From: a virus
Taxonomy: Duplodnaviria > Heunggongvirae > Uroviricota > Caudoviricetes
DNA: 4,791 nt
IMG/VR virus record: IMGVR_UViG_2737471846_000007
Reading direction: 5' to 3' (one strand)
This document shows positions 3,048 to 3,563 of the stretch, in pieces. Made by a program: the position numbers and the translations under genes. The notes under the pieces were generated by a model. It was given only the letters and a program-made list of their open reading frames with translations. It had not been told where the DNA came from and did no database searches. Within the stretch, counting starts at the first letter, position 1. Every line of letters starts with the position of its first letter.

Positions 3048-3344
3048 TTATACCTCTGAATCAATATCAACCTGGTGGTGAGCAATGGTTTCAACCATGT
3101 ACCGGATGTGTTCTGCCATGCGCTCCTGAAACTCAACATCGTCATCAAACGCACGGGTAATGGCTTTTTTGCTGGCCCCGTGGCGTTGCAAATGATCGAT
3201 GCATAGCGATTCAAACAGGTGCTGGGGCAGGCCTTTTTCCATGTCGTCTGCCAGTTCTGCCTCTTTCTCTTCATGGGCGATCTGCTGGTAGTGACGCGCC
3301 CAGCTCTGAGCCTCAAGACGATCCTGAATGTAATAAGCGTTCAT
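3048..3344 (-). CDS. gam: RecBCD inhibitor Gam, short (GamS, 98 aa) form only
   Basis: Protein [98 protein letters not shown] is lambda GamS with a few substitutions; AGGAG SD 8 nt upstream of ATG 3344-3342. The upstream GamL-type start (ATG 3465) is in a different frame here. Confidence 0.93.
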
Positions 3345-3419
3345 GGCTGAACTCCTGAAAATGGCTGTGAAAATATCGCCCGCGAAATGCCAGGCTGATT
3401 AGGAAAACAGGAAAGGGGG

Positions 3420-3563
3420 TTAGTGAATGCTTTTGCTTGATCTCAGTTTCAGTATTAATATCCATTTTTTATAAGCGTCGACGGCTTCACGAAACATCTT
3501 TTCATCGCCAATAAAAGTGGCGATAGTGAATTTAGTCTGGATAGCCATAAGTGTTTGATCCAT
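3420..3563 (-). CDS. kil: Host-killing / FtsZ-inhibiting protein Kil (47 aa)
   Basis: [54 protein letters not shown] 9 nt upstream of ATG 3563-3561; overlaps cIII 3' end by 32 nt, as I recall for lambda. The 89-aa extension in the ORF track (start 3689) would run through cIII in another frame and is not used. Confidence 0.85.

Follow-up and report, generated by a model that had tools for sequence, protein, structure and literature searches.

Background

Gam of phage lambda is a dimer that mimics DNA and blocks the 3'-ssDNA channel of RecB with its N-terminal helix, and the structures that have been solved are those of its short form, GamS (PMC5218532). GamS and the long form, GamL, are both active when expressed from a plasmid and both potentiate quinolones, GamL being at times slightly more effective than GamS in disc assays with K. 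pneumoniae (PMC5218532). In the lambda genome (NC_001416, 32816..33232) gam can be read as GamL of 138 aa or as GamS of 98 aa. The sole in-frame start upstream of GamS is an ATG 120 nt upstream, and reviews presume that lambda makes GamL from it (PMC11610958).

We analysed gam in a stretch of 4,791 nucleotides from the IMG/VR virus record IMGVR_UViG_2737471846_000007 (hereafter the window). The reading that we favour, with a probability of about 0.9, is that its gam is a natural allele with one additional T in the leader (the +T allele), that this allele yields GamS only and that inhibition of RecBCD is kept. The extra T takes the upstream ATG, the GamL start in lambda, out of frame; a 98-aa GamS-type protein would be translated from its own strong Shine-Dalgarno (SD) site, and this near-lambda GamS would still act on RecBCD.

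Operon context of gam

The window corresponds to the recombination region of a lambdoid E. coli prophage, which belongs to the pL operon and has the gene order cIII-kil-gam-bet-exo. E. coli 2013C-4830 (NZ_CP027325) contains a prophage segment that is 99.9% identical to the window over its full length, and four complete E. coli chromosomes span the window entirely at 99.8-99.9%, while the top sequenced phages span just 77-78% of it. All window features described here lie on the minus strand. The gam gene occupies 3048..3344 (98 codons plus stop, ATG at 3344-3342) and was assigned to the GamS type from its ORF, Pfam and PDB matches and comparison with lambda. The Red-operon context seen in the ORFs, the PGAP annotation and lambda surrounds it: cIII (3532-3696) and kil (3420..3563, 47 aa) lie upstream, bet (2257..3042) follows directly at the 3' side and exo, encoding lambda exonuclease, comes next (1580..2260). 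The gene positions come from the ORF list and from the PGAP annotation of the matching region. In NZ_CP027325, PGAP calls the same 98-aa gam ORF, WP_000995409.1.

The kil frame is open further upstream, to an ATG at 3689, which gives an 89-aa reading (3420-3689) that overlaps cIII. This long kil (270 nt) is the form given in the record of phage 933W, whereas in lambda and in the PGAP annotation Kil has 47 aa and starts at 3563. Within the operon that also holds gam, kil is a second case of start-site ambiguity. Two further genes of the window are without counterparts at those places in lambda. One, at 872-1429, encodes a phage N-6-adenine methyltransferase of 185 aa and lies between exo/DUF1317 and a TraR/DksA-like gene; the other, at 4333-4782, encodes a hypothetical protein of 149 aa that contains hydrophobic stretches, and lies upstream of ea10.

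A single extra T breaks the long gam frame

An ATG at 3465-3463 opens an upstream ORF of 50 codons (3313..3465, from the sequence and the ORF list). Its codons 1-34 correspond to GamL residues 1-34, after which it runs +1 relative to gam, crossing the gam ribosome-binding site and the first 10 gam codons before it ends at TGA 3315-3313. The distance from the upstream ATG to the GamS ATG is 121 nt in the window and 120 nt in lambda. Alignment to NC_001416 (window AGCCATTTTCAGGAG, lambda AGCTATTTCAGGAG) located the frame-breaking indel in a T run at 3358..3361, where the window has four T and lambda three, together with a T-to-C change at 3363 (window AGCCATTTTCAGG, lambda AGCTATTTCAGG). From the AGGAG SD (3356-3352) through the GamS ATG, no difference was found between window and lambda.

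The initial annotation had read the essentials of this arrangement from the letters. Both the sequence and the ORF list agree with the start that it placed at 3465, 121 nt before the GamS ATG at 3344, with the length of about 50 codons and with the stop; the resemblance of the upstream frame to the beginning of the 138-aa lambda Gam extends to the 34 codons given above, and the one extra base that it proposed relative to lambda is the T seen in the alignment. The positions that it gave for the run (3360-3366 and 3357-3363) cover the site and are a few bases off, and the T-to-C change at 3363 is absent from its account of the difference from lambda.

In the window, no ATG, GTG or TTG lies in frame with gam between the GamS ATG and a stop 54 nt upstream, so that the in-frame start upstream of the Gam domain which defines the GamL isoform is missing here. 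Since the extra T puts the upstream ATG out of frame, the locus can make only the 98-aa GamS-type protein. Kil and the upstream ORF share the last 46 nt of kil, an arrangement also seen in lambda. The upstream ATG itself takes its A from the end of a kil Lys codon and its TG from the Trp codon that comes next, and its conservation thus needs no GamL function. The leader also contains a run of five C (3415..3419), which is intact in the window; in relatives, frame-breaking indels occur at this second site too.

The GamS product and its start signals

The 98-aa protein matches the Pfam family Gam (PF06064) with 213.8 bits, the curated cut-off being 25, and its residues 1-98 correspond to positions 1-98 of the 98 in the profile. 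The Pfam model itself covers lambda GamL residues 41-138, that is, GamS. All 98 residues also align to the GamS chains of PDB entries 5MBV and 2UUZ (E=1.7e-60), and 95 of 98 are identical to lambda Gam residues 41-138, the differences being L22I, R24H and S61A. By every feature checked against the family, the gam product is a Gam family member. It is the only product here with a Gam domain, and the 50-aa upstream ORF has no Pfam family match. Compared with the known structures (2UUZ, 2UV1 and 5MBV; GamS alone and GamS-RecBCD), the window protein is a full-length and near-identical counterpart of crystallised GamS, from which the three conservative substitutions make no difference of importance. 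Because it is near-identical to lambda GamS, inhibition of RecBCD should be retained, and we infer that the protein inhibits RecBCD as lambda GamS does. The initial annotation had regarded Gam function as probably retained, and the identity to lambda GamS together with the full Pfam match points the same way.

The AGGAG site (3352..3356, read from the sequence) lies 7 nt before the GamS ATG, which bears out the earlier description of an intact GamS frame with its own SD. Duplex energies with the anti-SD, computed over the 20 nt preceding each start codon, were -6.9 kcal/mol for the GamS ATG, comparable to bet (-7.1), kil (-6.9) and cIII (-8.5). The upstream ATG gave +0.4 kcal/mol and is thus without an SD. 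The minimum free energy of the leader RNA (-32.5 kcal/mol) was not better than that of shuffled sequences (z=+1.14), and a leader structure that couples the upstream ORF to GamS or hides the GamS SD was rejected on this basis.

The +T allele is one of two major alleles of lambda-type gam

The identical +T allele is present in phage 933W (AF125520) and in the Stx2-converting phage 86 (NC_008464). Their 441-nt gam region is 99.1% identical to that of the window and their Gam is likewise 98 aa long; they differ from the window by a few leader SNPs (A/G at 3452, C/A at 3415) and in the accessory genes that flank the region. The initial annotation had proposed a comparison with gam annotations of relatives, and the records agree with the short reading: gam is annotated as 98 aa in 933W, as in the PGAP call, and the phage 86 record lists the 50-aa upstream ORF separately as 'gam alternate' (YP_794101.1).

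Prevalence was assessed with a 66-nt probe across the indel site, in the window version and the lambda version, by counting exact matches. Among phage records, 79 carried the window allele and 81 the lambda allele; in the 5,426 complete E. coli genomes, 1,425 records had the window allele and 748 the lambda allele. A pattern scan of IMG/VR returned at least 120 contigs, and among the 120 matches listed the long frame was open in 65 and broken in 55. The broken ones comprised 47 contigs with the extra T, six with a deletion of one C and two with both. The C deletion therefore occurs among these matches on the lambda-type background (six contigs) and on the +T background (two contigs), and in each case leaves an upstream ORF of 21 aa; where both indels are present, the distance between the two ATGs is back to 120 nt and the upstream ORF still stops after 21 codons. 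An intact 98-aa GamS was found in all 58 broken-frame loci (the IMG/VR matches listed, 933W, phage 86 and the window).

The run had four T in 49 of the IMG/VR contigs listed and three in 71, and its length was fully linked to the SNP at 3363: C accompanied T4 in 49/49 and T accompanied T3 in 71/71. Such complete linkage indicates an old, stable haplotype and not a slipping homopolymer. A phase-variable homopolymer switch was rejected as well, the run being 3-4 nt long and its length tied to the T/C SNP across the 120 contigs listed.

Lambda-type gam thus has two major natural alleles, of which +T is one; it occurs in numerous Stx phages and prophages of E. coli. This allele was already known, as public records have contained it from the 933W genome onwards, and current pipelines annotate it correctly; no paper discussing the gam T3/T4 polymorphism was found in the literature searched. 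Of the two origins that the initial annotation had offered for the frame break, the genuine variant is the one borne out by the 79 phage and 1,425 complete E. coli records, although the allele is not peculiar to the window, being one of the two major ones.

Alternative explanations

The other origin was a homopolymer error in sequencing or assembly, which would leave the true phage with a continuous 138-codon GamL frame. The indel does fall in a short T run, but that run is just four T, and the same allele with its linked C at 3363 recurs in the early reference genome of 933W, in phage 86, in 79 independent phage and in 1,425 complete E. coli records obtained with varied technologies. With run length and SNP perfectly linked in the 120 contigs listed and four complete chromosomes matching the whole window at 99.8-99.9%, an error is effectively excluded. 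We give equally little credence to a programmed +1 frameshift that would restore a GamL-like long protein at CAU-UUU-C. If tRNA-Phe slipped by +1 from UUU to UUC at 3361-3357, translation would indeed continue in the gam frame and yield a protein of 138 aa, but the site has none of the known +1 stimulators: no SD-like element lies just upstream, the AGGAG is downstream, and the 0-frame A-site codon is CAG (CAU UUU CAG GAG), neither a stop nor rare. The prfB-type arrangement, a stop or hungry codon with an SD-like stimulator ~3 nt upstream, is therefore not found here. Ribosomes would also have to initiate at an upstream ATG that has no SD, and the relatives with the C deletion need another shift, their upstream frame ending after 21 codons, which speaks against any conserved recoding logic.

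It is also unlikely, though conceivable, that the upstream ATG is still used, such that the 50-codon overlapping ORF tunes GamS synthesis through ribosomes that pass over the gam SD and ATG, or its peptide has a role of its own. This ORF is open, and always 50 aa long, in 50/50 loci that have only the +T change (47 IMG/VR contigs among those listed, 933W, phage 86 and the window), one record annotates it as 'gam alternate', and if lambda makes GamL from the same ATG, as presumed (PMC11610958), that ATG should initiate here too. Were this so, the dose of GamS would be set differently from lambda, and the two alleles would be two expression designs and not a neutral polymorphism. Against it, the ATG has no SD (+0.4 kcal/mol) and its presence is accounted for by the Lys-Trp codons of kil; there is no significant leader RNA structure to couple the two ORFs (z=+1.14), the peptide is without a Pfam match, and other relatives have the ORF cut to 21 aa, or lack the ATG, yet keep GamS. 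Translation of GamS alone, from its own SD, remains the reading that we prefer.

Conservation of the GamS start and the GamL extension

In phages PhiR30_1 and 4A7 the +T leader is shared from the end of the preceding gene on, with another gene upstream and without the GamL ATG, and in Shigella phage 75/02 Stx gam, again of 98 aa, overlaps an exonuclease VIII gene at the latter's stop; in all three phages gam starts at the GamS position without an in-frame upstream start. More distant Gam proteins, at 69-75% protein identity (Citrobacter, Klebsiella, Raoultella and an Enterobacteriaceae genome), start at the GamS-equivalent ATG, and no in-frame start lies upstream in any of the five diverged homologues. 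Since the distant genes all begin where GamS does, the GamS start is the family-wide one, and the GamL frame is limited to a part of the lambda-like clade.

Lambda itself resembles the window in operon order, SD, GamS ATG and kil overlap; the two differ in that lambda has T3 with T at the SNP and the upstream ATG in frame (GamL), whereas the window has T4 with C and the 50-aa ORF instead. Among the IMG/VR matches listed, at least three different indel states disrupt the long frame, in each case with GamS retained. Because about half of the lambda-type gam genes cannot encode GamL, GamS is kept in each of them and the distant starts are those of GamS, the comparison gives modest support to the view that the 40 additional residues of GamL are dispensable, and their loss would have come at little or no cost.

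Substitutions in the open-frame haplotypes were also compared. Codons 17-40, the part of the extension that does not overlap kil, carry 6 synonymous and 6 non-synonymous changes, a ratio of ~0.30 against 0.27 for GamS, which with 11-12 mutations is not significant. By reading frame, the ratio of non-synonymous to synonymous changes was lowest in the GamL frame (0.34, against 3.29 and 0.61 in the others), with just 9-11 mutations per frame. GamL may have a lineage-specific role that was lost in the +T allele. Gam from infected cells, described by Karu et al. in 1975, reportedly has subunits of ~16.5 kDa, a size that would fit GamL made by lambda itself.

For the window itself these results have little consequence, as its Gam function is almost certainly intact. 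They add modestly to the long-standing question of which Gam isoform matters. GamS as the conserved form fits its routine use in structural work, recombineering and cell-free systems, and annotators should not take lambda as the model for placing the gam start at the upstream ATG.

Further observations on gam leaders and gam-like sequences

Just upstream of the gam start, TTTCAGGAG or a near variant was found in 4/5 of the diverged homologues. Three of these outgroup leaders read AAATTTCAGGAG (T3) and one AAATTTTAGGAG, and further upstream they could not be aligned. The AAATTTCAGGAG / AAATTTTAGGAG motif thus persists in the 20 nt before the gam ATG in otherwise unrelated leaders, at 69-75% protein identity, and its conservation exceeds the need of the SD alone.

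One E. coli and one Shigella flexneri chromosome carry, at ~1440-1790, a gam homologue of 82% identity whose first codon is CAG and whose N-terminus is altered (SAYPIFDRIEEMAW). It is probably the decaying gam of a defective prophage.

A scan of genome contigs for gam returned mostly lambda DNA contamination, with 7 loci being informative. Lambda gam (97% protein identity) was found in many assemblies from unrelated bacteria, those of Pseudomonas, Shewanella, Neobacillus, Oceanobacillus, Kitasatospora, Leeuwenhoekiella and Chromatium, among others, and several of these contigs are ~48.4-48.5 kb long with coverage near 1x; they look like lambda control or vector DNA. Similarly, MW057783.1, deposited as 'Campylobacter phage CJLB-4', is 48,361 bp long and has the exact lambda allele of the gam leader; it looks like phage lambda itself and not a Campylobacter phage.
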